NCBI GenBank assembly: GCA_030041545.1
Contig: JASHNQ010000028.1
Location: forward strand, 6,150 to 70,149
DNA from: a candidate division FCPU426 bacterium
GTDB lineage: Bacteria > Oederibacteriota > Muellerivitia > Muellerivitales > Muellerivitaceae
Length of the DNA: 64,000 bases
Direction: 5' to 3'
In this document: one piece after another, positions 2,472 through 60,782 of the stretch
Layout: every line of letters begins with the position of its first letter
How positions within the stretch are numbered: the first letter of the stretch is position 1
Notes under the pieces: generated by a model
The model's input: only the letters and a program-made list of their open reading frames with translations
The model's database searches: none
Told to the model about the DNA's origin: nothing
Made by a program: the position numbers and the translations under genes

Positions 2472-4154
2472 TTAGAAATCGTCGGTCACCGCACCCTGGC
2501 TCGCCGAGGAAACCAAGCGGACGTATTTGCCCAGCACTCCCTTGGGGTAAGGCGAAGGGATGGGCTTCCACTTGGCCTTGCGCTTCTTCAACTCCGATGC
2601 GGCCACGTGGAGCTCCAATTTCTTCTTTTCAGCGTCAATGGTGACCTTGTCGCCGTCCTTAATGAGGCCGATGGGCCCGCCCACCTGGGCCTCGGGGGCG
2701 ATATGACCGACCACCAGGCCATGGGTGCCTCCGCTGAAGCGCCCGTCGGTGATAAGCCCCACCTTTTCCCCCAACCCTTGGCCCACCAGGGCCGCCGTAA
2801 TGGCCAGCATTTCCCGCATGCCGGGGCCGCCCTTGGGGCCCTCGTAACGGATGACCACCACGTCGCCCGCCTTGATCCTTTTCTTTTGGATGGCCTCGAA
2901 GGCCGCTTCCTCGCCGTTGAAAACCTTGGCTGGCCCCGTGTGGGTGACGGCCTTCAACCCGGAAATCTTGGCCACCGCGCCTTCCGGGGCCAAATTGCCC
3001 CTCAAGATCACCATGGGGGCGGTGGGGTAGAGGGGTTTGTCCAGGGGGCTGATGATGGGCTGGTTTTTCGAAAGGGGTGCGGCCAGCTCCAGGTTCTCCG
3101 CCACCGTCTTGCCGGTGACGGTCAGGGAGTCTCCGTGCAGGAGCTTCGCCTCCAGGAGCAGTTTCATGACCGCGGGGATGCCGCCGATGCGGTCCAGGTC
3201 CGCGGCTACGTGTTTTCCGCTGGGCTTCAGGTCCGCCAAGTGGGGGACCTTCTTGCCGATGCGGTCGAAATCCTCCAGCGTGAGCTTGACACCCACGGCC
3301 TTGGCGATGGCGATCAGGTGCAGCACGATGTTGGTGGAGCCGCCCAGGGCAAAGCCCACGGTGATGGCGTTCTCAAAGGCTTTTTTGGTCATGATGTCCC
3401 TGGGGCGGATGCCCTTCTTCAGGAGCTCCACCACGGCCTGGCCGGCCCGGTCGCAGATCAGGCGCTTGGGCTCGCCCACAGCGGGCTGGCAGGAATCGTG
3501 GGGCAGGGCCATGCCCATAGCCTCGATGGCCGAGGCCATGGTGTTGGCCGTGTACATGCCGCCGCAGGAGCCGGGCCCGGGGATGGCGCATTTCTCGATC
3601 CGCTCCAGCTTGTCGTGGCTGATCTTATGGGAACTGTATTGGCCCACCGCCTCGAAGACGGAGACAATGTCGATGTCCTTGCCGTCGCACTTGCCGGGAA
3701 GGATAGTGCCACCGTAGATGAAGATGGCGGGAATATTGAGGCGCCCCATGGCCATGAGACAGCCTGGCATGTTCTTGTCGCAGCCGCCGATGGCCACCAG
3801 GCCGTCAAAGCGCTCGGCGTTGGAAACCACCTCAATGGAATCGGCGATGACCTCGCGGGACACCAGGGAGAACTTCATGCCCTCGTGGCCCATGGCGATG
3901 CCGTCGGAAACCGTGATGGTGCCGAAAACCTGGCCGAAACCTTCGGCGGAAATCACCCCCCGCTTCACCCGGTCGGCCAGCTCGTTCAAGTGCATGTTGC
4001 AGGGGGTCACCTCGCTCCAGGCCGAAGCCACGCCGATGATGGGCTTCTGGAAGTCCTCGTCCTTGAACCCCACGGCCCGCAGCATGGCGCGGTTGGGGGC
4101 CCGTTTGTCCCCCTCGGTCATCATCGATGAACGCTGATTGAGCTTGGTCTTCAT
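2472..4154 (-). CDS. ilvD: Dihydroxy-acid dehydratase
   Basis: [47 protein letters not shown] motifs. Confidence 0.97.
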
Positions 4155-4187
4155 GATTTCCTTTCTAAATTTGAAATAAAGGCTTTT

Positions 4188-4286
4188 TAACCACCAAGCA
4201 CACCAAGGTCACCAAGAACGGCTAAGAAAAAATAGAATTTTTGGTTGAAAGCTTTTCTTGGTGGTCTTGGTGACCTTGGTGGTTCA
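4188..4286. repeat. Palindromic intergenic element, 9-nt-period family (AACCACCAAG... / ...CTTGGTGGTT)
   Basis: Inverted arms of three CACCAAG-type units around an AT-rich spacer. Confidence 0.85.
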
Positions 4287-4291
4287 AATTC

Positions 4292-4732
4292 CTATAAGTA
4301 TTGAAGCACTTCCTGGCTGTGGCCTTCGGGGTTGACCTGGGGAAATAATTTCTTGATCTTGCCATCCTTGCCGATGACGGCCGTCACCCGGGCGCTGTTG
4401 CCCTTTTCCATCCGGAAAGCGTCGTAGGCCTTGGAAACGGCACCGCCCATGTCCGACAGCAGGGGGAAGTTCAGGTGGAATTTCTCCGTGAAGGCCTTGT
4501 GGCTGGCGTTGTCGTCCACCGACACGCCCAGCACCACCGCGTCCTTGGCCGTGATTTGGGAGATGTCGTCCCTAAAGCTGCAGGCCTCCTTGGTGCATCC
4601 CGGCGTGTCGTCCTTGGGGTAAAAGTAAAGCACCACGTTTTTCTTGCCCTTGAACTGGGACAGTTGGACGGTGCTCCCGTCGGTGGCTTTGAGACTGAAA
4701 TCGGGAGCGGGGCTTCCTTCTTGGAGCGGCAT
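4292..4732 (-). CDS. bcp: Peroxiredoxin, BCP/PrxQ type
   Basis: YFYPKDDTPGCTKEACSFRD active-site motif; SD AGGAGG. Confidence 0.93.
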   Translation of the reverse strand: MPLQEGSPAPDFSLKATDGSTVQLSQFKGKKNVVLYFYPKDDTPGCTKEACSFRDDISQITAKDAVVLGVSVDDNASHKAFTEKFHLNFPLLSDMGGAVSKAYDAFRMEKGNSARVTAVIGKDGKIKKLFPQVNPEGHSQEVLQYL

Positions 4733-4810
4733 GCGAACCTCCTGGGATCGAAATGAGAGGGCATTTTAGTGCCGGTGTCGAACGGACTCAAGAAGGACAA
4801 AAAGTTTATG

Positions 4811-4898
4811 AACCACAAAGACACAAAGGGCACTAAGGAAGAATAAAAATCTTTAAATTCTTAGGTCTTTCGCTGTTCTTGGCGCCTTGGCGGTGAAA
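4811..4898. repeat. Palindromic element, 9-nt-period family
   Basis: AACCACAAAGACACAAAGGGCACTAAG ... CTTGGCGCCTTGGCGGTGAA. Confidence 0.75.
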
Positions 4899-4903
4899 GT
4901 GTC

Positions 4904-5806
4904 TTAGCCTTTTCGGGGGGCGATTTTCTCGAGGGACTGCAGCAGTTCGCCGGTAACCGTACCCAGGCAGATTTCCTCCACGGGCCCGCGCATGGTCAGC
5001 TCGAAATCCCTGCCGACCTTGAGGAAAAGGTCGCCGCCGGGCATGTGCAGGGTCAAATCCCCGTCGGTTTTCCCGGTCTTCACGCAGACGGCGGCCACGG
5101 CGCAGGAGGAGGAACCGGAGGCCAGGGTGTAGCCCGCCCCCCGCTCCCAAATGCGGATGGAAACTTCTCTGCGGTTGTCGACCACCGCGAATTGCACGTT
5201 GGTGCGGTTGGGAAAGAGCGGGTGTTTTTCCAGGATGGGCCCGATCTCATGGGCCCACTTCTCAGCCTCAGCGATGTCCTTGGCGAAGACCACGCAATGG
5301 GGATTGCCCATGGAAACGCAGTTGATGGCCAAGCCGTCACCGCCCGGGGAAAGAGGGATTCGCTTATCCAGGACCTCGGCTTCGGCATTGGGAACGTTGA
5401 CCGGGATCTTAGCGGCCTTGAACTCCGCCTTCCCCATGTCCACGGTGACGGCCGCGGCCTTGCCGACCACCAAGTGCAGCTGGGCCTGGACCTTGCCCCC
5501 GGCGGTCTCGATCTCGAAAAAGGTTTTTTCCGTATAACCGTGCTCAAAGAGGAATTTGCAGAAGATTCTCAGGCCATTGCCGCTTTTTTCCGCCTCGCTG
5601 CCGTCGGGGTTGTAAATCCTCAATTTGGCGAGCGAGGAGTTGGATTTTTCCAGGGCCAAGATTCCGTCCGAGCCCACGCCCGTATTGCGGTTACAGACGC
5701 GGATGATGTTTTGGGGAGTCAGTTCGAAAGAAAGCGCGGCGGGGTCCATGACGAGATAATCGTTGCCCAGGCCGTGGGACCGGACAAATTGGTTTTTTGA
5801 GAGCAT
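4904..5806 (-). CDS. dapF: Diaminopimelate epimerase family protein with Ser at both catalytic Cys positions
   Basis: HGLGNDY, YNPDGSEAEKSGNGLR, SMGNPHCV, FPNRTNVQF, WERGAGYTLASGSS motifs. Confidence 0.88.
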   Translation of the reverse strand: MLSKNQFVRSHGLGNDYLVMDPAALSFELTPQNIIRVCNRNTGVGSDGILALEKSNSSLAKLRIYNPDGSEAEKSGNGLRIFCKFLFEHGYTEKTFFEIETAGGKVQAQLHLVVGKAAAVTVDMGKAEFKAAKIPVNVPNAEAEVLDKRIPLSPGGDGLAINCVSMGNPHCVVFAKDIAEAEKWAHEIGPILEKHPLFPNRTNVQFAVVDNRREVSIRIWERGAGYTLASGSSSCAVAAVCVKTGKTDGDLTLHMPGGDLFLKVGRDFELTMRGPVEEICLGTVTGELLQSLEKIAPRKG

Positions 5807-17917: not shown

Positions 17918-18259
17918 CTACCGGTAACGTTCCGGCGGGTATTTCGCCCGATGGTCCGCGTAATGGGCCCAGGGCTTGCCCCGATCCGCCTTCAGGGACA
18001 CGTGACGGCCCAGGTGGTGAAACCGCGGCGGCAAATGGGCGGTCCGGACCCAGTTAGGACCGTTCTGGTAGAAATAAACATGGGCCCTGTAATCGTAATA
18101 GACCCCAAAAGCGGGATAGTACCAGTAGCTATAGGCTGGGGCTGGCGCCGGGGCGCCGCCGCCAATATTGACGGAGATCGACGCTTGGCCGAATCCGCCG
18201 GTAGGCGCCAGCAAGGCGAGGGGAATGAACAAACCGACTAAAAGCAAAAAACGTTTCAT
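17918..18259 (-). CDS. Small secreted Tyr/His/Pro-rich hypothetical protein
   Basis: SD AAGGAGG; signal peptide; YWYYPAFGVYYD...FYQNGPNW...LPP pattern. Confidence 0.7.
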   Translation of the reverse strand: MKRFLLLVGLFIPLALLAPTGGFGQASISVNIGGGAPAPAPAYSYWYYPAFGVYYDYRAHVYFYQNGPNWVRTAHLPPRFHHLGRHVSLKADRGKPWAHYADHRAKYPPERYR

Positions 18260-18713
18260 CGATTCCTCCTTAAAAATGGGGTCGAAGGTGGAAAGGTCGG
18301 AAGGCGATAAAGACCCTCTCTCCGGTCCGAAGTGAACGACAATGGCGGGTTCAGCGGCCTTTGCCGCTTTCCCTGTCTTTATCTTCGGCCCATGTTCCTT
18401 CAAAAAACAACCCTGGCCTGACATTTTGTTTTTCTATAGTTAAAGACGTTTTTATCAGGGTTAATGTGTTGGAAGCATGATGGATTGGAAGATTGGCGAT
18501 TTGAAACCCAGCCTGCCTATTGGGCCTCACTGGTATTTAGTGGTGATTATCGAAATGGCAACCTGTGGCCCGGTATGGGCTCAACCCAAAATTTCATTTT
18601 TTATGTTCTTCGGAATTGATAAGACCTCTAAAATATCTTTTTTAACTTCTGCCTTTATGGTTTGCATAATTCCTCCCTCGGAATCTTTACTATTTGAAAC
18701 CTATTTTATTAAT

Positions 18714-18798
18714 CGGAACTATGCACTTGGCATAACTTGGATGTTAAGCCTTTGCTTTTCCCCCTCTCCCTTGAGGGGAGAGGGCCGGGGTGAGGGTG
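18714..18798. repeat. MITE-type terminal repeat (CGGAACTATGCACTTGGCATAACTT) followed by a CCCTCTCCC...GGGTGAGGG arm
   Basis: 24/25 match to the reverse complement of 24461-24485. Confidence 0.8.
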
Positions 18799-18809
18799 AT
18801 TATCTTTTT

Positions 18810-18968
18810 TCAGGCCTGACCCCGTTCACTGGCGATGCCACCGGCGACCGTGATCCCCGCGTTTGTCCCCGGGAGTTGGTTGGTTAAAAACAACGGCGAG
18901 CAGGCGGTGATTCCGCCCCTGGATGCATCCTTCAGCATTTTCCAAATCACATCTTTTTCCAGCGTCAT
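18810..18968 (-). CDS. 52-aa hypothetical protein (MTLEKDVIWKMLKDASRGG...)
   Basis: Strong SD AAGGAGG 6 nt before ATG; below the ORF-track cutoff; no recognisable motif. Confidence 0.4.
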   Translation of the reverse strand: MTLEKDVIWKMLKDASRGGITACSPLFLTNQLPGTNAGITVAGGIASERGQA

Positions 18969-19312
18969 ACCCTACCTCCTTAAAAGTTTTACCCCTGTTA
19001 CGTTTATTCCCGGTCAAGCTCCGGAACCAAGGGCTTGGCCTGCAAACGACACAATGAAAAAGAGGGCTCGGACCAGCACGCTAAACCGCTGATAGCCCGG
19101 TGGAACGGGGCGTGGGCAAAGAGCGGACCGGCGTTCCGCGGCTTTTCGCACCGGCGGCGGGCGGCCTGAGCCCGAGGAAGGATAGGACTTTTTCCGTCAC
19201 ATCCGGGCTTTCCCAGTAATCCCGTGGCCCAACTGGTTGAAAGGCGCGTCCTGCGCCTGCGTCCGGCCCCCGGTAAACGGTCCAGCGGCCACCCTGGAAC
19301 CTTAGGCCCCAT

Positions 19313-22053
19313 TTATTTGAAAGCCAGCATGTCCGGCGCCAATTTGGGCTTCCCGATATCGGGCCCCTTGTCCACCGTCCACATTTTCCCGTCCCCCTTG
19401 ACCGACCATATTTTTTCGGCGATATGCTCGCCCAGCTTCCGGTAGCCTTCCCATTCCTCCTCGGAATAAAACTGGTTCACGGTGGATTCCTGCGGGAAAT
19501 CGCCGTGCTGTTGCCGGTAACTAGCCAGGTCCAGGGGTTCATCCCCGGTCAGGCCGGGCTTGAGGATGAGGATCAGGCTGTGTTCCTTATCCGGCCTCCC
19601 GGGATAACCCACCCAGGCCAGGAGACCGTGCTTTTTGCACTCGGGCTGGTCCGACCCCGGCGCTTTCACGGTGAAGTTATCCAGGGAACCCAGGAAGTTC
19701 TCCACTAGTGTCGGGTCCACGTTGTCTATAAGGTCCTGTTGGCTGTAGAAGGTGATTTCCGCCTGGAAGTCGTTGCGCGCCTTCAGGACCATCCGGGCGA
19801 AGTCCTCGAACTGGTACTGGGGGTCCTCCCCGGTATCGCAAAGGATGATGAAAGGGATCCGCCTGCGGATTAGCTCGTAGCAAGCGGTGTTCTCGAAATG
19901 GCCCCCGTCCGAGAGGTTCCAGAACCGCCGGGCCGGGCCATGGAAACGGGCTGACAGCTCGTCTAGGAGGTTGTGCTGGACCGGAAAATACTTCTCCAAA
20001 TAAGTGGAAATTTTGGACCAGAGGCCTTTCGGGTTCCGGTTCTTCTGGGCCGCGGCGGATAGCCGGCTGTTCCACCAGTAGCCTAGGCGGATATTGGCCA
20101 GGCCCAAAAGCAGGCTGTAAATGGGGTTGGTTTGGTAGCCTAACCCGGTGCCCATGGCCGCGCCCGAGATGGAAACCCAGGACCCCAAGGTGGGGGATTC
20201 GACGGGCTGGTAAAGGTCCGCCGGGGTTCCTTTCCTGTGTCCGAAGGTTGCGATCCGAAGAAGGAAATCCTTGGTTTTGGTCCAGGCCGTGGCGTACCAC
20301 GGGTTGTCGGTTTCGAACACATGAAACTGGTAATTTCTGTCACCGGGTTTGCTGTCGGATTTTTCGATCATGATGGGGCTCAGTCTTTCATAGGAGGGAT
20401 GCAGCGGGCCCCCTTCCCAGAGGGAATGGTGGCGGATGTCGACGGTCAGGCCGCAGGGACCCACCGCCAGGGACAGGCCTTTGCGGTCCTGCTCCTCAAC
20501 CCTCGATTTTTCGTTGATGGTTTCATTGAGGGTGGTGTTGATGATGTGGAGCGGGCCCCCGTTATCCGCCGGGGAGTATCGGCTCATCTCCGTGTCGTCC
20601 CGGTACAGGTCGACCGGGGAATCCTGCTTGGAATCGTCCTTGCAGTCCGCGGCCCCTAGGTAGGCGTTGACCAGCCTGGAACGGTAGAGCGGATGCTGGG
20701 AGGAGTAGTTCAGGAACGTGACCGTGTTTCCGATGCAGTAACAGACGACCCCCAAAAACGGCCAGACCAGCCAGGAATACCAAAGACTGTCATGGAAGTA
20801 GGATTGCTCCAGGTAATGCACCGACAAGGTGACAAAGGCCACGATCAAAAGGAACCACGCGGCGGCGATGATCCCCAGGATCACCAGCTTCAAGACGCCC
20901 GGCATTTTCGCGTTTTTGTCCTTCATTTGCGCCGTGATTTGGTTGCCGATGAAAGAAAGGGCGGCCGCGAGGAGGGGCGGGACCGTCAGGCTGGTGACAT
21001 TGTGTTCGGAAAAAAATTCCACCATTTATCTTCGACAAATTTTTGACCAAACCAGTCCGCCAGGGCCCAGGCCAAGGTCGCCAAGAGAAGGAGGCACCCC
21101 AACCAGAAGGTCCCGGTGAAGGAAGACCTTAAGCCCCCCCAGAAATCGCTATTAGGGTCCTTAAGCTTGCGCCGGATACCCTGGATCACATACAGGATCA
21201 TGTAAACGAAGCTCATCCAGCAGACGGCCGCCACGACCCAGGAAGCGTACCGGAGGCCGTCGACCGGGCAATTGACCCCGAAGCAACTGCAAACGATAGC
21301 CATGACGGCTATGCCTGCGGAAGGCCCGAGCAGGATGGGCTTTCCAGGATCCCCCAGGCAGAGCCAATAGCCCAAGCCGGCGGGCAGGACCCAGAACAAA
21401 AGGAAAATCACCGGCAGGATCAGCAAGGAACTGCAAGGCAGATCCCCCGTATTCCAGAGGAGCCAGAGTTTGTTGACCGGCTCGTTAATGTAGGCCGCGA
21501 GCATCATGCCGCTCTGCGCGATGAAAAGGCCGAACAGGAGGTACACGACGTTCACGGTCGCTCAATTGCGGAGGCAAATCGCCAGGTCGACGAACAGGCT
21601 GATGGAACCGCTCGGGGCGAGGTACCGGCCGTGGTCGCGCAGCCATTTCAAGGGCGGGGAGGTATTGTCCGACAGGATTTCTTTGACCTGGCCGGGCGTG
21701 TCCTGGTGAACCTCGAAGAGTTTCCTCAGGAATCCTCCGAAATAGCCGCCTCCCGAGACCGTGGAAAGCCAGTCGATTTTTTTCAGGTAATCCAGGCGCG
21801 CGAAAGTTTGGAAGATCCCCAGGCTGAGGGTGGCGCTGCGGATTCCCCCGCCCGAAAGGGCCACACCGATGGCGGGACCCCTCCGCTTCTTTTCTTCTTT
21901 TTCCCATTTTTCCCGGCGCTTCTCAATCAGGCTTTCCTCCCATGTCTTTAAGTCTTTGGGATAATAAGAGTTCGGGTATATATCCTCGTAAGGAGGCGCG
22001 ACCGCCTTTGTCGAAGGATTTTCTTTTTCGGATGATTCCATGTTCCCTCCCAT
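19313..22053 (-). pseudogene. cPLA2/patatin-like membrane phospholipase gene split by an in-frame TGA (21562-21564) and a frameshift at a T7 run (21010-21016)
   Basis: GVALSGGGIRSA and STVSGGGY in the first piece, TM block in the middle, LSDGGHFEN catalytic Asp motif in the last piece; pieces are collinear. Confidence 0.8.
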
Positions 22054-22129
22054 CGGTTTTTTAGGTTTCCTGGAATTATTTTGTGGCGGCTATTTATTTT
22101 GCCCTTACTGGCTTTTAAAAAAGGGGCTT

Positions 22130-22541
22130 GCCACCATCCAACACTTTAAGTTGTCCAAGGTGTTATGTGTTGGCCTGGCCCCCTTTTGTGTACAGGGATC
22201 GTCAAAGCCGTCCATTTTCGCTCAAAAAATTTTATTGATAAAATGTCCCTATTTTAGGAATCGAATGATGATTTTAAAAGTTAATTCCAAATAAAATTCA
22301 AAACAGGACACCTATAGTGCGATTAAGCGTTTTATCCAAAAGCGTTTCCATGGGTGATAGTGTCATACATCACTTAGAAGTCATTTCTTCGAGATAGGTT
22401 CTAGTTTCCCCTCGCCCTACCCTTTCTCGCAAGCAGCGAGGGTTTTGGTACTTATGAAATGACTTCTCATCAACAAAAAGAAAAGAACAAAGGGGCCACT
22501 ATTCAACACTTTGGGGCGCTCCAAAGTGTTATGGGTTGGCC
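22130..22541. repeat. Two direct copies (22130-22175, 22495-22541) of a palindromic motif GCCAC-AT-CAACACTTT-n-CCAARGTGTTATG-GTTGGCC
   Basis: Direct comparison of the two segments. Confidence 0.7.
22376..22467. mobile_element. 92-bp MITE-like element enclosing a CCCTCGCCCTACCC arm
   Basis: Perfect 12-bp TIR AGAAGTCATTTC / GAAATGACTTCT; no clear target duplication. Confidence 0.6.
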
Positions 22542-22755
22542 TACCCTATCAACTTTTTTTGTTAACCATTGGCCTTGAGGGCTAGAATGGCCCCAGGAGG
22601 TCAGCCAATGCGCCTGAACGGCCGCGGGGACCAAAAAGGGGAACTGGATTTCGACAGCAAAGATCCTAGGATATTTTTTTCAAATAAGCCACAATTGAAA
22701 TAGCTGGTTGCAAAAGCGAAAGTAAATATCAAACGGGGGAAAAGGTTAAAAAGTT

Positions 22756-24105
22756 ATGGCCGATAGCAAACCGGGACGTCGTTATGTAGAAACAGGTTTT
22801 GATAAATTTCTCAAGTTCTTTTCGATATTTTTTACTTTTTATTCGATCTTCATTGCCGGTTGGGCTTGTAATCTTGGAATTCACAAATTGGAAAATCAGC
22901 AAGGGTATTTCGCAAAAGCTTCATGGTTTTTATATCCTTTATGGTATTGGAGCGCTTTTCTTTTCGCGATATGGATTTCTCACCGGTTTAAAGACGCGTG
23001 GGTGAGTTTTTTTGATAAGAAACACGGAATAATTTACCAGGGGAAAAAACGAGGCGCCGATCCCCAGGCGAATGCCGATTTAGAAAAGGTTGTTGAAACT
23101 TGGCGTTGGATATTAATGTTGGTGGGTCTTGTTTTGGGATCCGGGATAGTTTGGTTTTTTGGCTATGTTCCGCTCAGCAATATCCCTGATAAATTCGACC
23201 GAATTGGTATAGATACTTCTTCAATCGACCTCAAAATTAATAAGCAGGACTTGGATGGCGGGGCAATTCTGTTGCCGGTTAATTCCCTGGACAAGCAGGA
23301 TGGCAAATCGGATTCAAAGATTATTAAAGGTACCCTCCAAATAGTTGGTCACGCCGAAAAAGCCGTAACAATGGTTTGGATGGACTCCAATGACTTTATG
23401 AGTTTGAAAAGCGAAAAGAAACAATATGTCCGTTGGTTCATGATTCAAAAAGATAAAAATGACATTATCAAAGACACTCAACCCAGGTACCCGCTTGATT
23501 TCGAGACCTATGGCCTTATCACTAATGACTCTTCTCGGAAACCCGAATTCAGGAGTTTTAATTTATTCGCGCAAGTACAAGAAATAGCCATCTTCGTGGT
23601 TGGAATTTCAGCGTTATGGAGTCTCTGTATCAACATTATCCTGTTTTTTTGCTTTGACCGGACCAAGATTCATAAAAAATACAACCTGGCCATGTCGCTC
23701 GATTATCAATCCCCTTTCAAGGAATTTGGCCTGGAACACTGGAACAACGTATTTAACGATATGTATCTCATAGCCGCGATAGGTTTGTTTGTCCCAATCA
23801 TTTCGCGCGCTGATTTTATAAAAGGCACAGCGGGAGTTGGAATACAGGATGCCATGGATGTATGTATCGTGGTTTTTGTTTTTGCCCCACTCTTGGCGGA
23901 GATATTCCTGCGGCGGATTAAGGTGCGGGAAGCCTTTTCCGCGATGAAAAAGAAGGAAACAAAAGAGAATTCCCAGAAATTCATGGACCAAACTCTTTGG
24001 CCATTTGACCGGGACTATGCCGGGAAAATTGGGTTTCTGGCTGTTTTATTCGAAGTCTCTTATCTTTTAACTGGTATGTGGGGGAATATTTTTGGGATAT
24101 TTTAG
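22756..24105 (+). CDS. AT-rich multi-pass membrane hypothetical protein
   Basis: 449-aa ORF, several TM segments around a soluble insert; codon usage unlike neighbours. Confidence 0.75.
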   Translation: MADSKPGRRYVETGFDKFLKFFSIFFTFYSIFIAGWACNLGIHKLENQQGYFAKASWFLYPLWYWSAFLFAIWISHRFKDAWVSFFDKKHGIIYQGKKRGADPQANADLEKVVETWRWILMLVGLVLGSGIVWFFGYVPLSNIPDKFDRIGIDTSSIDLKINKQDLDGGAILLPVNSLDKQDGKSDSKIIKGTLQIVGHAEKAVTMVWMDSNDFMSLKSEKKQYVRWFMIQKDKNDIIKDTQPRYPLDFETYGLITNDSSRKPEFRSFNLFAQVQEIAIFVVGISALWSLCINIILFFCFDRTKIHKKYNLAMSLDYQSPFKEFGLEHWNNVFNDMYLIAAIGLFVPIISRADFIKGTAGVGIQDAMDVCIVVFVFAPLLAEIFLRRIKVREAFSAMKKKETKENSQKFMDQTLWPFDRDYAGKIGFLAVLFEVSYLLTGMWGNIFGIF

Positions 24106-24163
24106 GGAGAAATAAATAAGCCATGGTCGTGGATGTAATTCGATTTTGGGTATTTCATTTTTT

Positions 24164-24345
24164 CGGAACTATGCGCTTGGCAAAGCAGGCTACGGCACTA
24201 TCGCGAAGAAACAACTTCCCCCTCTGAAAGAGGGGGATGAGAGGGGAAGTTAGCCTTTGCCGATGGTTCCGACAAAGACTAATACCCCCCTGCCCCCTTT
24301 TTCAAAGGGGGGAACTGGGCTTGCTTTGCCAAGTGCATAGTTCCC
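24164..24345. mobile_element. MITE (about 180 bp) with GGAACTATGCRCTTGGCAAAGC TIRs; inverted copy at 60601-60782
   Basis: 22-bp TIR with one mismatch; internal CCCCCTCTGAAAGAGGGGG and CCCCCTTTTTCAAAGGGGG hairpins shared with the 60.6-kb copy. Confidence 0.85.
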
Positions 24346-24360
24346 TTCGGGAATTTAAGC

Positions 24361-24490
24361 CCCCCTCACCGGGTTCGACTCCCTTCGGCCGCTCACCGCA
24401 AGCCTACCCTCCTGCCCTGAGGTTCTCGAAGGGCTCCCGCAATGGGCGAGGGTTTTTGGTAAGTTATGCCAAGCGCATAGTTCCGAAAAA
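24361..24490. repeat. CCCTCACC-family arm with nested hairpins ending in a MITE terminal repeat
   Basis: Inverted near-copy of about 13550-13634; ends AAGTTATGCCAAGCGCATAGTTCCG. Confidence 0.8.
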
Positions 24491-24567
24491 CAATTATTAG
24501 AGGTACCCTTAATGGATTGGAATCAGAAGAATTTAATCCGAACAAAAAAGCGGAGTGCCGGTTTGAA

Positions 24568-24615
24568 TCAGCTTCCTGTGTCCAGGCGGTACTTGGCGAA
24601 GGACTACTGGGCAGG
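24568..24615 (-). repeat. Decayed copy of the 3' end of the gene at 26738-27406
   Basis: Reads PAQ*SFAKYRLDTGS* versus PAQQAFAKYRLDTGS*. Confidence 0.9.
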
Positions 24616-24639
24616 CTACGCCCGGCGGATTCCCAACCC

Positions 24640-25623
24640 CTAACTCTGCCCCATTTTCTTCCTAATCTCCCCAAGTGACAACCTTTCGCTTTGAAGCTCC
24701 CGGATGCGCTTGGCGTGGTCCACGGCCTCCGGTGGGTAGAGGGTATAACCTGAATCTGTATGGCCGGCTGTTGGGAGGAGGCCTTCCTTGGTCCAGTGGC
24801 GCAGGGTGGCCACGGTTTCACCGGTCTTTTTAGATAGTCCGCCAATACGAAGCAATTTGGAAGCGACGGTGCTTGCCTTGGGGCTCTTTCCCCTAGCGGC
24901 CTCCAGGTAAATGTCCAGGGACCGGTCAATGGCTTTGACCATCAGCTTTTCATAGTCCACCAGGCTTCTCCCTAACTGAGCTTTTTCCAGGCTGTTCAAG
25001 TAGGTCACGCGTTCCCGGGGTTGGATAAAGGCGGGGGGATAACCACCGCGCATCAAAAGCAGGTTCATCAAAAGCCGGGCGGTGCGGCCATTGGCATCGA
25101 TGAAAGGATGGATGCTCACCAGCCGGTAATGGGCCTGGGCGGAAAATTCGGCGGGGTGCATGGACGGATGGGATTTGAGCCAGTCCGAAAATTCGGCCAT
25201 GAGCTCGGGGACCTTCCGGGGATTGGGCAGGACCACGGTAGAACCCGCTATCCGGACCGGCATGGAGCGGTACCGGCCGGCGTTGGCGTCGTCGATGTCC
25301 CGGAGGATGATTTCGTGAAGCGCGAGGATTTCTTTTTCGCCGACGGGGTGTTTGGGGGAGGCGGCCAGTTCCTTGACCCAATCCAGGGCCTTCGCGTGGT
25401 TGGAGGCCTCCAGGTGCTCCTTGAGGGTTTTGCCGCCGACCGTCAGGCCTTTTTCCAAAACGACCGCTGTTTCCTGGCGGGTCAGGGTGTTGCCCTCGAT
25501 GGCGTTGCTGGTATAAGTGAGTTCCACCCGGAACCATTCCTCCAGGTTTTTCACCAGTTCCGGCTTCAGGGGCCTCAGGGCGTCGAGGCGTTTTTTCTTG
25601 GGGTTGAGGCTATGCCAGTTCAT
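24640..25623 (-). CDS. Fic domain protein (class II-type inhibitory motif) fused to a C-terminal MerR-type HTH
   Basis: SNAIEGN, HPFIDANGRTAR; LRIGGLSKKTGETVATLRHWTKEGLL...SGYTLY. Confidence 0.92.
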   Translation of the reverse strand: MNWHSLNPKKKRLDALRPLKPELVKNLEEWFRVELTYTSNAIEGNTLTRQETAVVLEKGLTVGGKTLKEHLEASNHAKALDWVKELAASPKHPVGEKEILALHEIILRDIDDANAGRYRSMPVRIAGSTVVLPNPRKVPELMAEFSDWLKSHPSMHPAEFSAQAHYRLVSIHPFIDANGRTARLLMNLLLMRGGYPPAFIQPRERVTYLNSLEKAQLGRSLVDYEKLMVKAIDRSLDIYLEAARGKSPKASTVASKLLRIGGLSKKTGETVATLRHWTKEGLLPTAGHTDSGYTLYPPEAVDHAKRIRELQSERLSLGEIRKKMGQS

Positions 25624-25630
25624 AGCCTAA

Positions 25631-25659
25631 AGTATAAAGTGTAACGTTATGGTTTACAA
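25631..25659 (-). promoter_or_regulatory. Sigma70-type promoter for a leaderless fic-merR transcript, overlapped by a TGTAA-N9-TTACA palindrome
   Basis: Minus strand TTGTAA-17nt-TATACT-7nt-ATG; no SD. Confidence 0.65.
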
Positions 25660-25799
25660 GGTTCGGCGGCGGGGTCGTTTGGCTAAGGAGGGGAAGTGGT
25701 TGGGTTAAGGAAGAATCCGTTAACTCGTCACTCCCAACCCTTCGATTTTACTCAGGGCCCTGAGGCTCTCGAAGGGCTCCTAATTCCTAACTTTGTGTA

Positions 25800-25853
25800 T
25801 CAGCTTCCCGTGTCGAGACGGTACTTGGCGAAGGCCTGCTGGGCGGGATCATT
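25800..25853 (-). repeat. Synonymously diverged copy of the 3' end of the gene at 26738-27406
   Basis: Encodes NDPAQQAFAKYRLDTGS* exactly, with four third-position changes. Confidence 0.92.
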
Positions 25854-25867
25854 CAAGAAATCCCGGA

Positions 25868-26128
25868 CTAAAGGGGAAACGCTCTTTCAATATGACGTAA
25901 AATCCTATCGGACTCCTCCGTCGTAAAATCCGACCCGTAAAACCTCAAAAAAAGCCTGCGGCGCATCTCCTTGGGATCGTCCCGGCCTAACTCCTTCCGG
26001 ATGCCCGCCATGGCCAGTTCCTTCGCGGCGGAAAACATCTCGCGGCCCATCCGGAAACGCTTCGCTGGGGCAATCTTTTTCCAAACCTCCATATACCGTT
26101 TTTCCATTTCGGGGGAAGTATCGTTCAT
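25868..26128 (-). CDS. Small basic partner protein of the nucleotidyltransferase (putative TA component)
   Basis: ATGA overlap with upstream gene; MNDTSPE...RRRLFLRFYG. Confidence 0.75.
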   Translation of the reverse strand: MNDTSPEMEKRYMEVWKKIAPAKRFRMGREMFSAAKELAMAGIRKELGRDDPKEMRRRLFLRFYGSDFTTEESDRILRHIERAFPL

Positions 26129-26673
26129 GGCTTTAATTCCTCAAGCTGCCGGGAGATGCCCAGGGCCAAGGCCCATTTGTTGAGATAAGCATAATCCAGG
26201 TTGTGGGTCAGAGCCAATAAACTCCGGACGTCCCGTTTTTGAAAGTCCGAACCCGTATTTTTTGCCCATTCCAGTTTGGAGAGAATAAGGTCCTCGGGAG
26301 CGGCAACGAACAATTTGGAACCATCTTCTAATTCCATTTGCCGTCGGCGAAGGAATTCCGTTTTACGGTACTCAAGGTCTTTTCGGATGATAAAGTCGAC
26401 CTTGCTTGCCCATTTTTCGTGGATGGCGTTAAACATGGTATGGCCCTCAACGGCCCTCTTGACCTCGGATTCATCCAAGTAAAATTCGGGGGAAAAAAGC
26501 CGGTGAAATTGTGGAATATGGTAAGAATCCAGCTCAACTACAAGGTCAATATCGCGGGTCATACGAGGTTGGGCATAGAAATCCAACGCCGCCGACCCGG
26601 TGAGCATGTAGGGAATTCCAGCCCTTTCTAAAAGAGAAACGACGAGCTTGATGAGCTCTAGCTGTTCATTCAT
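26125..26673 (-). CDS. Pol-beta-fold nucleotidyltransferase (DUF6036/AbiEii-like), putative toxin
   Basis: YMLTGSAA...PRMTRDIDLVV, KVDF, APEDLILSKL..A...Q.RD motifs. Confidence 0.82.
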   Translation of the reverse strand: MNEQLELIKLVVSLLERAGIPYMLTGSAALDFYAQPRMTRDIDLVVELDSYHIPQFHRLFSPEFYLDESEVKRAVEGHTMFNAIHEKWASKVDFIIRKDLEYRKTEFLRRRQMELEDGSKLFVAAPEDLILSKLEWAKNTGSDFQKRDVRSLLALTHNLDYAYLNKWALALGISRQLEELKP

Positions 26674-26737
26674 GGAAGAATATTAGCACGCCTGGGAAAG
26701 AGGGGCACTAATGATGGCCGGCGAAAGCTTTTAAAGC

Positions 26738-27406
26738 TCAGCTTCCCGTGTCCAGGCGGTACTTGGCGAAGGCCTGCTGGGCGGGGTCGTTGGAGTCGTC
26801 CCTCAAGTCCTGCCAGCGCTGCAGGTGGTTGGAGTAATCCAGGTCCCTCAGGACCATCTCGGTGGGGCCGTCGTTGAAATGCCATTCCTTCAATAGCACG
26901 TCGTTGCCCAGGGGCTCGGGATTGCCGGTGGATTCCTTGTTCCACCGACGGTACTGCTTGGCCCACTGCTCGATGGGTTCCGCCTTGGCGTTATCCCCCT
27001 CCCACATGGCCGAGATGAAGTAAAGCTTGCCGCTGGGAATGTGGAAAAGGAGGTCCAAGGTGGTGGCCCCGGTCACCCCTTCGGAGGCGTCCAGCGAGGC
27101 GATTTGGAACTGCGGATCGTTGTTGAAGGACCTCAGCTTTTTTTTGATATCGGGGAACTTTTGGGCCACCTCGTCCAAGGTCATGCCCAGGGTGAGGCCG
27201 TCCGTTTCGCGGGGAAGGGGGATTTTGGGGCCGGCGAAAAATTCCTTGAAAACCCCCGTGCCCCAGATGGCGCCGAGGATGAGCAGGGCGAACAAAAACC
27301 CAATGGCCTTGCCCTTCCATTGCCCGGGCGTGGGAAGGGGCGCGGAACCAGGTTTTTCGGCGGCGGGCGTCTCGGCGGCCGGAGGATGTTTGCGTCGTTG
27401 GGGCAT
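26738..27406 (-). CDS. Membrane-anchored hypothetical protein
   Basis: Host-like codon usage; single TM helix then GLTLGMTLDEV-type soluble domain; start could be 27427. Confidence 0.8.
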   Translation of the reverse strand: MPQRRKHPPAAETPAAEKPGSAPLPTPGQWKGKAIGFLFALLILGAIWGTGVFKEFFAGPKIPLPRETDGLTLGMTLDEVAQKFPDIKKKLRSFNNDPQFQIASLDASEGVTGATTLDLLFHIPSGKLYFISAMWEGDNAKAEPIEQWAKQYRRWNKESTGNPEPLGNDVLLKEWHFNDGPTEMVLRDLDYSNHLQRWQDLRDDSNDPAQQAFAKYRLDTGS

Positions 27407-60600: not shown

Positions 60601-60782
60601 CGGAACTATGCACTTGGCAAAGCAAATCCAGTTACCCCCTTTGAAAAAGGGGGGAAGGGGGGTATTAGCTTTTGCCGAAACCATCGGAAAGGCTAACTTC
60701 CCCTCTCATCCCCCTCTTTCAGAGGGGGAAGTTGTTTTTATGCGACAGTACTCTAGCCTGCTTTGCCAAGTGCATAGTTCTG
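60601..60782. mobile_element. MITE, inverted copy of 24164-24345; possible 7-bp target duplication AAATTTT
   Basis: GAACTATGCACTTGGCAAAGCA / TGCTTTGCCAAGTGCATAGTTC; AAATTTT at 60594-60600 and 60783-60789. Confidence 0.85.

Follow-up and report, generated by a model that had tools for sequence, protein, structure and literature searches.

Integrative and conjugative elements (ICEs), together with cis-mobilizable elements, accrete in tandem at the 3' end of fda in Streptococcus thermophilus, as exemplified by ICESt1 and ICESt3. Insertions of another type, known as insertions with long target duplication, are delineated by direct repeats longer than 30 bp, an insert smaller than 20 kb and the absence of mobility genes (PMC2853133, Furuta et al. 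2010). In the available portion of that paper, the repeats around restriction-modification units often span the start or stop site of the target gene, which is spared, double-strand breakage by the restriction enzyme is suggested to be involved, and the repeat pairs quoted are nearly identical (44/46, 47/47, 417/423). The structure described here resides in 64,000 nt of a candidate division FCPU426 bacterium (assembly GCA_030041545.1, contig JASHNQ010000028.1, positions 6,150 to 70,149), hereafter the window. Two toxin-type modules lie one behind the other downstream of a conserved protein gene, and each is followed by a further copy of the last codons of that gene. To judge from their codon differences, the copies are diverged working gene ends which come from related, separate lineages, and modules may have entered by ordinary homology rather than by the action of a recombinase of their own. 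In the following, G000 denotes the genome holding the window, which lies on the 71-kb contig C63, and G001, G002 and so on denote its relatives. The components of the array, in window coordinates and in the order in which the target gene is read, are:

26738-27406, minus strand: target ('host') gene, encoding a lineage-specific protein of 222-229 aa; the longest frame extends to 27427
26738-26791, minus strand: tail copy 1, the working 3' end of the target gene, 54 nt including TGA
26125-26673, minus strand: cassette 2, gene 1, a 182-aa predicted nucleotidyltransferase-fold protein, DUF6036/DUF2204/AbiEii-like
25868-26128, minus strand: cassette 2, gene 2, an 86-aa partner, the start of which overlaps the end of the nucleotidyltransferase gene
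25800-25865, minus strand: tail copy 2, 54 nt encoding the same peptide plus stop, with weaker similarity extending to about 66 nt
24640-25623, minus strand: cassette 1, a Fic domain protein of 327 aa, fused at its C-terminus to a MerR helix-turn-helix
24568-24615, minus strand: tail copy 3, identical to copy 1 at 44 of 48 nt, decayed

Direct copies of the last 48-54 nt of the target gene start at 24568, 25800 and 26738, and are spaced by 1232 and 938 nt, respectively. The three copies, and their common orientation, had been noticed in a first-pass annotation of the window, and were found again both by reading the window and by a repeat search. Tail copies 1 and 2 encode the same 17-residue peptide, NDPAQQAFAKYRLDTGS, followed by a stop, and differ at exactly four positions (AAC/AAT, GAC/GAT, CGC/CGT and CTG/CTC); codon comparison confirmed that all four changes are synonymous, as previously read. 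Tail copy 2 starts 2-14 nt past the stop codon of the 86-aa partner gene, and is matched by residues 208-229 of the host protein at 86% in a tblastn search. The 48 alignable nt of tail copy 3 carry a CAG>TAG stop and a GCC>TCC (Ala>Ser) change, both already reported, plus two synonymous changes; this is the oldest copy. The repeat is specific to the locus. A 47-nt pattern allowing up to 3 mismatches has two matches in the window and none in 100 shuffles, and a 25-nt core is found only at the three window places throughout the 3.8-Mb genome, the reversed control giving no match. A blastn-short search revealed no tail copy beyond the three, no 5' or internal fragments of the target gene were found downstream of it, and no tRNA, tmRNA or known RNA which could have served as target is present in the window. 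Each interval hosts one module, as stated earlier and as confirmed by open reading frames (ORFs) and Pfam: the nucleotidyltransferase with its small partner in a cassette of 872 nt, and the Fic-MerR gene in a cassette of 1178 nt.

The identity of the two modules is supported to different degrees. The Fic-MerR protein matches the Fic family (PF02661, E 1.3e-22, 80.9 bits, cut-off 24) and MerR_1 (E 1.1e-15) in Pfam, and partially matches Fic/Doc-type families in NCBIfam. Its translation contains HPFIDANGR, which we take to be the Fic catalytic motif, and SNAIEG, presumably the inhibitory one. By family membership, its label as toxin-type appears well founded. The same label is plausible for the nucleotidyltransferase and its partner. 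The 182-aa protein scores 16-17 bits in Pfam, under the cut-offs of 21-23.6, and has no NCBIfam family; its neighbour clusters in the ESM Atlas, at 0.97, carry DUF6036, DUF2204 or AbiEii on 10-42% of their members. The 86-aa partner has no Pfam or NCBIfam family, and its Atlas neighbours (0.88-0.89), in which PF18993 (Rv0078B) is found on 17-27% of the members, provide a weak lead only. The two genes have been kept together in G004 and in two Nitrospirales bins. At the two loci of the Nitrospirales bins, retrieved by scanning a genome collection with the nucleotidyltransferase, the cassette has no flanking gene-end repeat.

The same architecture occurs at many other places in the genome, so that the proposal to scan for gene 3' ends duplicated within a few kb proved fruitful. 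A whole-genome self-comparison by BLAST, set to low-copy direct repeats of 25-3000 nt whose two copies are separated by 150-30,000 nt, yielded 233 pairs. ORF ends are concentrated where the proximal copy ends: of the 103 which fall at most 60 nt from a repeat boundary, 29 are located between -6 and +5 nt of that point. Stop-anchored repeat rows (38) were curated by eye, and paralogues, long repeats and unclear cases were dropped (C109, five C4, two C41, four C49, C52, C53, two C75, C79:17606, C79:68939, C79:77985, C90, C30:57275, C91, and two C46, the repeat units of which are entire small genes). Two others, C67 and C79:51447, remained among the loci, C67 being excluded from the codon count due to indels. 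After removal of paralogue-type rows about 15 other loci share the layout of the window. A long conserved gene has its last 34-290 nt repeated 0.7-10 kb downstream, unrelated cargo lies in between, and in the large majority of the loci the repeat ends 0-9 nt after the stop codon. According to Pfam, the target genes encode, among others, MutS, ribonucleotide reductase, a GAF-adenylate cyclase, MetH, a TPR protein and an MrfA-like protein; LeuA was named from its translation. The cargo, also according to Pfam, includes HEPN plus MNT-type nucleotidyltransferases (3 loci), MazE plus MazF, a FitA-like ribbon-helix-helix (RHH) protein plus PIN, an AAA_16 ATPase, a DUF2204-like nucleotidyltransferase plus ORF6N, and a MazE-like protein plus AbiEii. 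At locus C30 a 1053-aa restriction-modification gene of the N6_Mtase/Eco57I type (type IIG) lies between 290-nt tail copies showing 95.9% identity. As judged by eye, the cargo has the same direction as the target gene in most curated loci, and at six of them (C106, C69b, C70, C114a, C43a and C43b) the last cargo stop codon precedes the distal tail by 6-16 nt.

Contig C46 (15392-18617) hosts a cassette array of a different type, namely three tandem units of about 1.5 kb, each starting with a whole small gene, behind which different small gene pairs are found. The small gene, which encodes a hydrophobic product of about 54 aa, is 84% identical between units, and the repeat is thus a complete gene, not a gene end.

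Relatives provide further examples. In G004 a 70% identical nucleotidyltransferase plus partner cassette is located, on a 2.05-Mb contig, behind a radical-SAM gene, the last 66 nt of which are duplicated right after the partner, with seven of seven differences synonymous. On the 883-kb contig of G002, three copies of the reductase gene tail enclose DUF4258 plus DUF2283, then HepT-like and DUF2442 genes. The tail of the pirin gene is duplicated in G001, G002 and G011, and in G002 and G011 the cargo between its two copies is a 168-aa gene which is found also in the window. Cassettes varying in number and content, always bounded by the same gene end, had been predicted for the target gene; they were encountered instead at the end of the ribonucleotide reductase gene, where both number and content differ among relatives. 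Downstream flanks of mutS are not conserved among G000, G001, G002, G004 and G020, so that no precise empty site is shown for this gene.

Codon-level divergence bears on the nature of the repeats. Comparison of proximal and distal copies in 13 pairs gave 76 synonymous and 29 non-synonymous changes (72% synonymous). Random change would make 26.5% of the changes synonymous (p 1.5e-22), and an in-place duplication followed by neutral drift of the distal copy 41.9% (p 2.6e-10). Four further pairs in relatives gave 27 synonymous and 11 non-synonymous changes. Of 12 distal copies (the G004 copy was not read), 11 retain a stop in the same position, 3 of them with a different stop codon. A rough estimate from these counts is that distal copies have undergone about 3% of neutral-type change, as opposed to about 20% synonymous divergence between copies, and most divergence thus appears to predate the loss of function. 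Because of the synonymous excess, the copies are better read as diverged working alleles than as duplicates decaying in place, and the idea that each was once a functional gene end, put forward for the window, extends to the whole genome. In all three arrays made of three copies (C63, C43 and the reductase gene of G002) the more distal copy is the more decayed, which fits insertion at the working end. The stacking by age suggested at the outset is supported to this extent.

The target gene is present in 23 of the 24 other genomes of family f1. Its product belongs to no Pfam or NCBIfam family, has 68 homologues, all without a name, and ends with a strongly conserved peptide, AQxAFAKYRLDxGS. In G003, the closest relative, the target protein is 95% identical, the gene end is present once, and a spacer of about 140 nt (137 nt) leads directly to the 168-aa gene. 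The single copy conforms to the empty site which had been anticipated; the gap does not, since G003 lacks 8.3 kb of the window (about 18430-26737), more than the two cassettes, and only the proximal 2.2 kb of the extra stretch are organised by tail copies. The target genes of G003 and G000 differ at 49 of 690 nt; five of the differences are crowded into positions 59-69, counted from the gene end, and the final 58 nt are free of them. Tail copy 1 is identical to the G003 orthologue at 54 of 54 nt, whereas tail copy 2 differs from it at 4 of 54 nt, approximately what is expected from the gene-wide divergence of 7%. The identity between the G000 and G003 tails spans exactly the repeated stretch, a pattern compatible with a foreign tract limited to the repeat. 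The newer module may have brought along a G003-like tail, and displaced the resident one; as a single observation in a conserved stretch, this is suggestive only.

A dedicated site-specific recombinase is unlikely to act at tail arrays. The absence of an integrase in cis, pointed out in the first-pass annotation, was borne out: the tyrosine recombinase family PF00589 has nine matches in the genome, none of which on contig C63, and the serine recombinase family PF00239 has no match in the genome. Pfam recognised only nucleotidyltransferase-like, Fic and MerR domains within the cassettes, and no mobility genes; transposase families were not included in the search. Thirteen tails have no word of at least 9 nt in common, inspection of the cassette ends by eye revealed no common motif, and the folding of tails is ordinary, since nine single-strand DNA folds gave z values of -1.58 to +1.00 relative to shuffles. 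One and the same cassette family, moreover, uses two unrelated gene ends. Finally, the islands of this genome which do carry integrases look different. Two of them, C114:44454-59921 (15.4 kb) and C69:6115-11433 (5.3 kb), are flanked by repeats of 54 and 41 nt which are 98% and 100% identical, and overlap genes for tRNA-Arg and tRNA-Ser, respectively; in both, the integrase gene adjoins one end. The fold values led us to reject the identification of tails as integron attC sites. A diversity-generating retroelement was rejected as well, although no reverse transcriptase was searched for, since changes are C/T and G/C at third codon positions, and are not adenine-specific.

The explanation which we favour, and to which we would give about even chances, is a homology-driven, recombinase-free insertion, resulting in an age-ordered array of two modules behind a conserved gene, with a copy of the tail travelling along with the module. 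According to this model, two addiction-type modules would have been inserted successively right behind the stop codon of the target gene, Fic-MerR being the older, the AbiEii-like nucleotidyltransferase with its partner the newer. Insertion would be driven by ordinary homologous recombination, not by a dedicated enzyme. A module located between two tail copies could be excised as a circle by recombination between the tails, and re-inserted through a single crossover into the gene tail of a relative; alternatively, a linear piece could be integrated, recombining through the gene body on its left and through the distal tail on its right. The tail copy would thus be a portable homology arm, matching the same gene end in any relative, and insertion would regenerate an intact gene while shifting a tail copy downstream. 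Acquisition of the tail of a new gene would presumably be a rare illegitimate event. The bias of the cargo toward toxin-antitoxin and restriction-modification systems could be explained because modules which punish their own loss survive recombination between the repeats, an argument made previously for restriction-modification units. The anatomy of the arrays, their generality, the allelic nature of the copies and the lack of a cis recombinase or of a common site motif are documented above; what we infer is that homologous recombination is required, that a circle or arm is the intermediate, and how a new tail is first acquired. A stronger version of the model, in which modules of this phylum are true mobile cassettes devoid of a recombinase of their own, homing by gene-end homology, stacking and popping out, is doubtful, albeit a real contender.

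Several observations weigh against homology-driven insertion. The target gene exhibits an array in one genome only: no second tail copy is present at 20 loci of relatives, or at the 9 metagenome loci retrieved by a scan with the host protein, at odds with the variable cassette number foreseen there. The tail is not obligatory. Nucleotidyltransferase plus small-gene cassettes at C43:7706-8398 and C42:2265-2956 are 86.4% identical over 693 nt, homology setting in 20 nt ahead of the start codon and ceasing at about the last stop; the C43 copy is found in the LeuA tail array, the C42 copy between two other genes without any flanking repeat. Similarly, a Fic gene of G012 is flanked by 145-nt intergenic repeats involving no gene end, and the cassette at C114:60002-61750 is oppositely directed, its repeat extending 31 nt beyond the stop. 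Not all cargo is addictive, exceptions being a lipoprotein, secreted proteins, the 168-aa gene and a MarR-like gene pair. The enrichment of repeats around HEPN genes is modest: direct repeats bracket 9 of 30 loci in the family, compared to 36 of 400 random G000 windows (Fisher p 0.0018), 6 of 25 when G000 is omitted (p 0.027), and 5 of 23 in other families of the phylum (p 0.06). The model leaves unexplained why one junction coincides with the stop codon even in pairs which are 96-100% identical, how a module obtains the tail of a new gene, and why the moving unit is apparently trimmed to its reading frames, as are the C43 and C42 copies. In public data the stretch is covered by four peat-metagenome runs, all from one study, but their contigs are short and have a depth of only 1-5. 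Joints found in these contigs (18798-18801 to 24216-24362, 24238 to 25738, and 25778 to 24272) fall in dispersed repeat elements, with sides of 20-37 nt, and none is located at 24568, 25800 or 26738. Neither a circle, nor an empty-site variant, nor an excision joint was seen; rare excised forms cannot show in contigs, and these data are therefore silent on excision.

The strongest competitor is an in-place long target duplication, in which illegitimate or replication-linked joining would duplicate 30-300 nt of the target, and the working copy would be overwritten later by diverged alleles. Staggered breaks, template switching or bridging between sister chromosomes could all be involved, and only events sparing the gene would survive. 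The accessible text of PMC2853133 reports insertions of this kind for every restriction-modification type, with repeats exceeding 30 bp and without mobility genes, and the type IIG gene at C30 is a fitting example. The intergenic repeats of G012 point in the same direction. Repeat identity forms a continuum among pairs, from 100% down to 82%, one pair (C88) having no differences, with 34 of 34 nt identical. The least-diverged pairs (C70, C30 and C69a) total 7 synonymous and 9 non-synonymous changes, near the 42% expected; they fit in-place duplication too, and count against homology-driven insertion. This competitor has difficulty with the estimate that most divergence predates loss of function. 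Differences between copies also reach the last codons and the stop codon itself, positions which a cassette-free donor could not replace by homologous recombination. Repeat ends anchored to the stop (0 to +9 nt) are not predicted, and double-strand breakage offers no rationale for RNase, nucleotidyltransferase or Fic toxins. On balance we regard in-place duplication as rather unlikely.

Decayed site-specific elements are a further possibility, which seems to us improbable. Integrase-borne units inserted in tandem would have been reduced to their att repeats and to a toxin module resistant to deletion. Direct repeats which regenerate a gene 3' end are a hallmark of integrase-borne islands, the genome hosts nine tyrosine recombinase genes and at least two intact islands with tRNA-overlapping repeats, and tandem arrays with older copies in distal position are compatible with accretion. 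Yet no integrase is found in the 8.3-kb variable region or in the 71-kb contig, and more than 13 gene ends are involved which share no word of 9 nt or more, so that each would have needed an integrase of its own. The use of two unrelated gene ends by one cassette family is equally hard to accommodate. Repeats are diverged and range from 34 to 290 nt, in contrast with the 98-100% identity measured at the intact islands, and many loci have small units, down to 665-1200 nt, in which the cargo is cut back to within 6-16 nt of the repeat. A trivial origin, either strain-chimeric assembly or remnants of full tandem paralogues, is highly improbable. The genome is a 115-contig metagenome bin derived from low-coverage peat data, and short-read assemblers can mis-join at repeats. 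Nevertheless, the copies differ, and are therefore not collapsed repeats, the same layout is found in the 2.05-Mb contig of G004 and in the 883-kb contig of G002, and contigs from public runs cover two junctions as assembled (26579-27243 and 25410-25855), though these runs may be the source of the assembly, and the contigs are then not independent. Paralogues would hardly leave only 3' ends, with unrelated cargo in between and no 5' or internal fragments downstream.

Homology-driven insertion would concern the proximal part of a larger variable region. Across six genomes, between about 0.9 and 9 kb separate the target gene from the pirin gene, and the site is therefore a variable spot. Other features of the region are:

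25735-25778, no strand assigned: short dispersed palindromic repeat between tail copy 2 and the Fic gene, separate from the tail repeat
24159-24490, no strand assigned: copies of a miniature inverted-repeat element, terminal motif GGAACTATGCRCTTGGCA, close to tail copy 3 on its distal side
22756-24105, plus strand: membrane-protein gene, encoding a 449-aa multi-pass protein, 40% G+C
19313-22053, minus strand: patatin-like gene split into three reading frames, with a GGGxRS-type N-terminus and a weak PF01734 match
18430-24567, no strand assigned: rest of the region absent from G003, without a bounding tail copy
17918-18424, minus strand: 168-aa gene, the first gene common to G003 past the variable region

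The dispersed palindromic repeat has a second copy in the window (24414-24437 pairs with 25757-25780), and 41-44-nt matches on five other contigs. Motif GGAACTATGCRCTTGGCA has 77 matches in the genome, mostly arranged as inverted pairs about 150 nt apart; elements of this type are found also at window positions 18715 and 60602-60781, and one copy lies right after the stop codon of a TPR gene at C69:91489. The membrane-protein gene, which belongs to no family, was probably acquired separately, because its G+C content is 40%, compared to about 57% for the genome. The patatin-like gene is interrupted, as read from the coordinates, by an in-frame stop near 21562 and a frameshift near 21000, and is either a pseudogene or the product of low-coverage assembly errors. 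In G003 the 137-nt spacer of the 'empty' site contains a 28-nt perfect palindrome, CCATAAAGCGTAACGTTACGCTTTATGG (L005, oriented 2232-2259); its likeness to the sequence upstream of the Fic gene (25630-25655; 15/16 nt, E 0.056) was judged not significant. In G001 the target-gene orthologue is followed by genes for a 358-aa ATPase-like protein and a 249-aa protein (L025, oriented 3909-5736; identical in metagenome locus L117). The two genes may be a defence pair, and no tail duplicate is present at this site.

The arrays bear on the question of how chromosomes acquire small toxin-antitoxin and defence modules where no recognisable mobile element is nearby. Dozens of natural examples, distributed over this genome, the family to which it belongs and further families of the phylum, display the same order of gene end, module and spare gene end. 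As frozen alleles, the spare ends would record both the order of arrival and the relatedness of the donors. Should tails indeed act as homology arms, it would become clear why addiction modules cluster behind conserved genes in the same direction, and how a module can cross between lineages in which gene order has diverged. A 25-year-old, mechanistically unsolved observation on restriction-modification systems would be extended to systems which do not cut DNA, and the proposed explanation by breakage would thereby be removed. If modules were shown to be homing cassettes, they would represent a third kind of cassette array, besides integrons and CRISPR, addressed by coding-sequence homology, and would answer how 'naked' toxin-antitoxin pairs spread between chromosomes.

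The initial interpretation is thus partly supported, and is for the most part correct as an evolutionary reading. Its claim to an undescribed system was overstated, because insertions with long target duplication are in print (PMC2853133, in the portion of the text available). The full-text literature searched, from which supplements and subscription papers were excluded, does not describe toxin-antitoxin cassettes delimited by duplicated 3' ends of genes. The window resembles the published insertions, as far as the accessible text describes them, in having a small addiction-type unit, direct repeats longer than 30 bp which are unique in the genome, and no mobility genes. The inserts are smaller than 20 kb, and the gene end is present in three copies in G000, in one copy in G003, which lacks 8.3 kb, and in one copy in 19 other relatives. 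C30 is exactly a restriction-modification case. In contrast, the cargo of the window includes neither restriction nor modification homologues, and the cargo of the arrays is mostly of the toxin-antitoxin type, with no DNA-cutting activity. Also in contrast with the published cases, to the extent that the same portion of text documents them, the repeat ends at the stop codon, two-cassette arrays occur, and copies are 82-97% identical with mainly synonymous differences.

Other known systems are similar in part. As in the accretion at fda, direct repeats derive from a gene 3' end, units lack a recombinase of their own, older units are distal and the gene is regenerated. The fda elements, however, measure kb to tens of kb, and share one att core and a cognate integrase, whereas here many unrelated gene ends are used, repeats vary in length and divergence, and neither a common core nor a cognate integrase was found. 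Resemblances to integron arrays, and to attC clusters devoid of an integrase, are units of about 1 kb arranged in one direction, with the newest next to the insertion point, the presence of a site after each unit, and the toxin-antitoxin pairs which are often carried; in one pair of cassettes homology begins only 20 nt before the start codon. Unlike integron sites, the repeats are family-conserved coding sequences, are locus-specific, and have no attC dyad structure. CRISPR spacer uptake offers an analogy only: insertion is proximal, adds a short repeat copy and produces an age-ordered array. In the arrays reported here, however, no Cas1-like gene was seen at the window locus, where none was sought, the inserts are genes of about 1 kb, the repeat is the end of a gene, and the copies are allelic rather than freshly duplicated.

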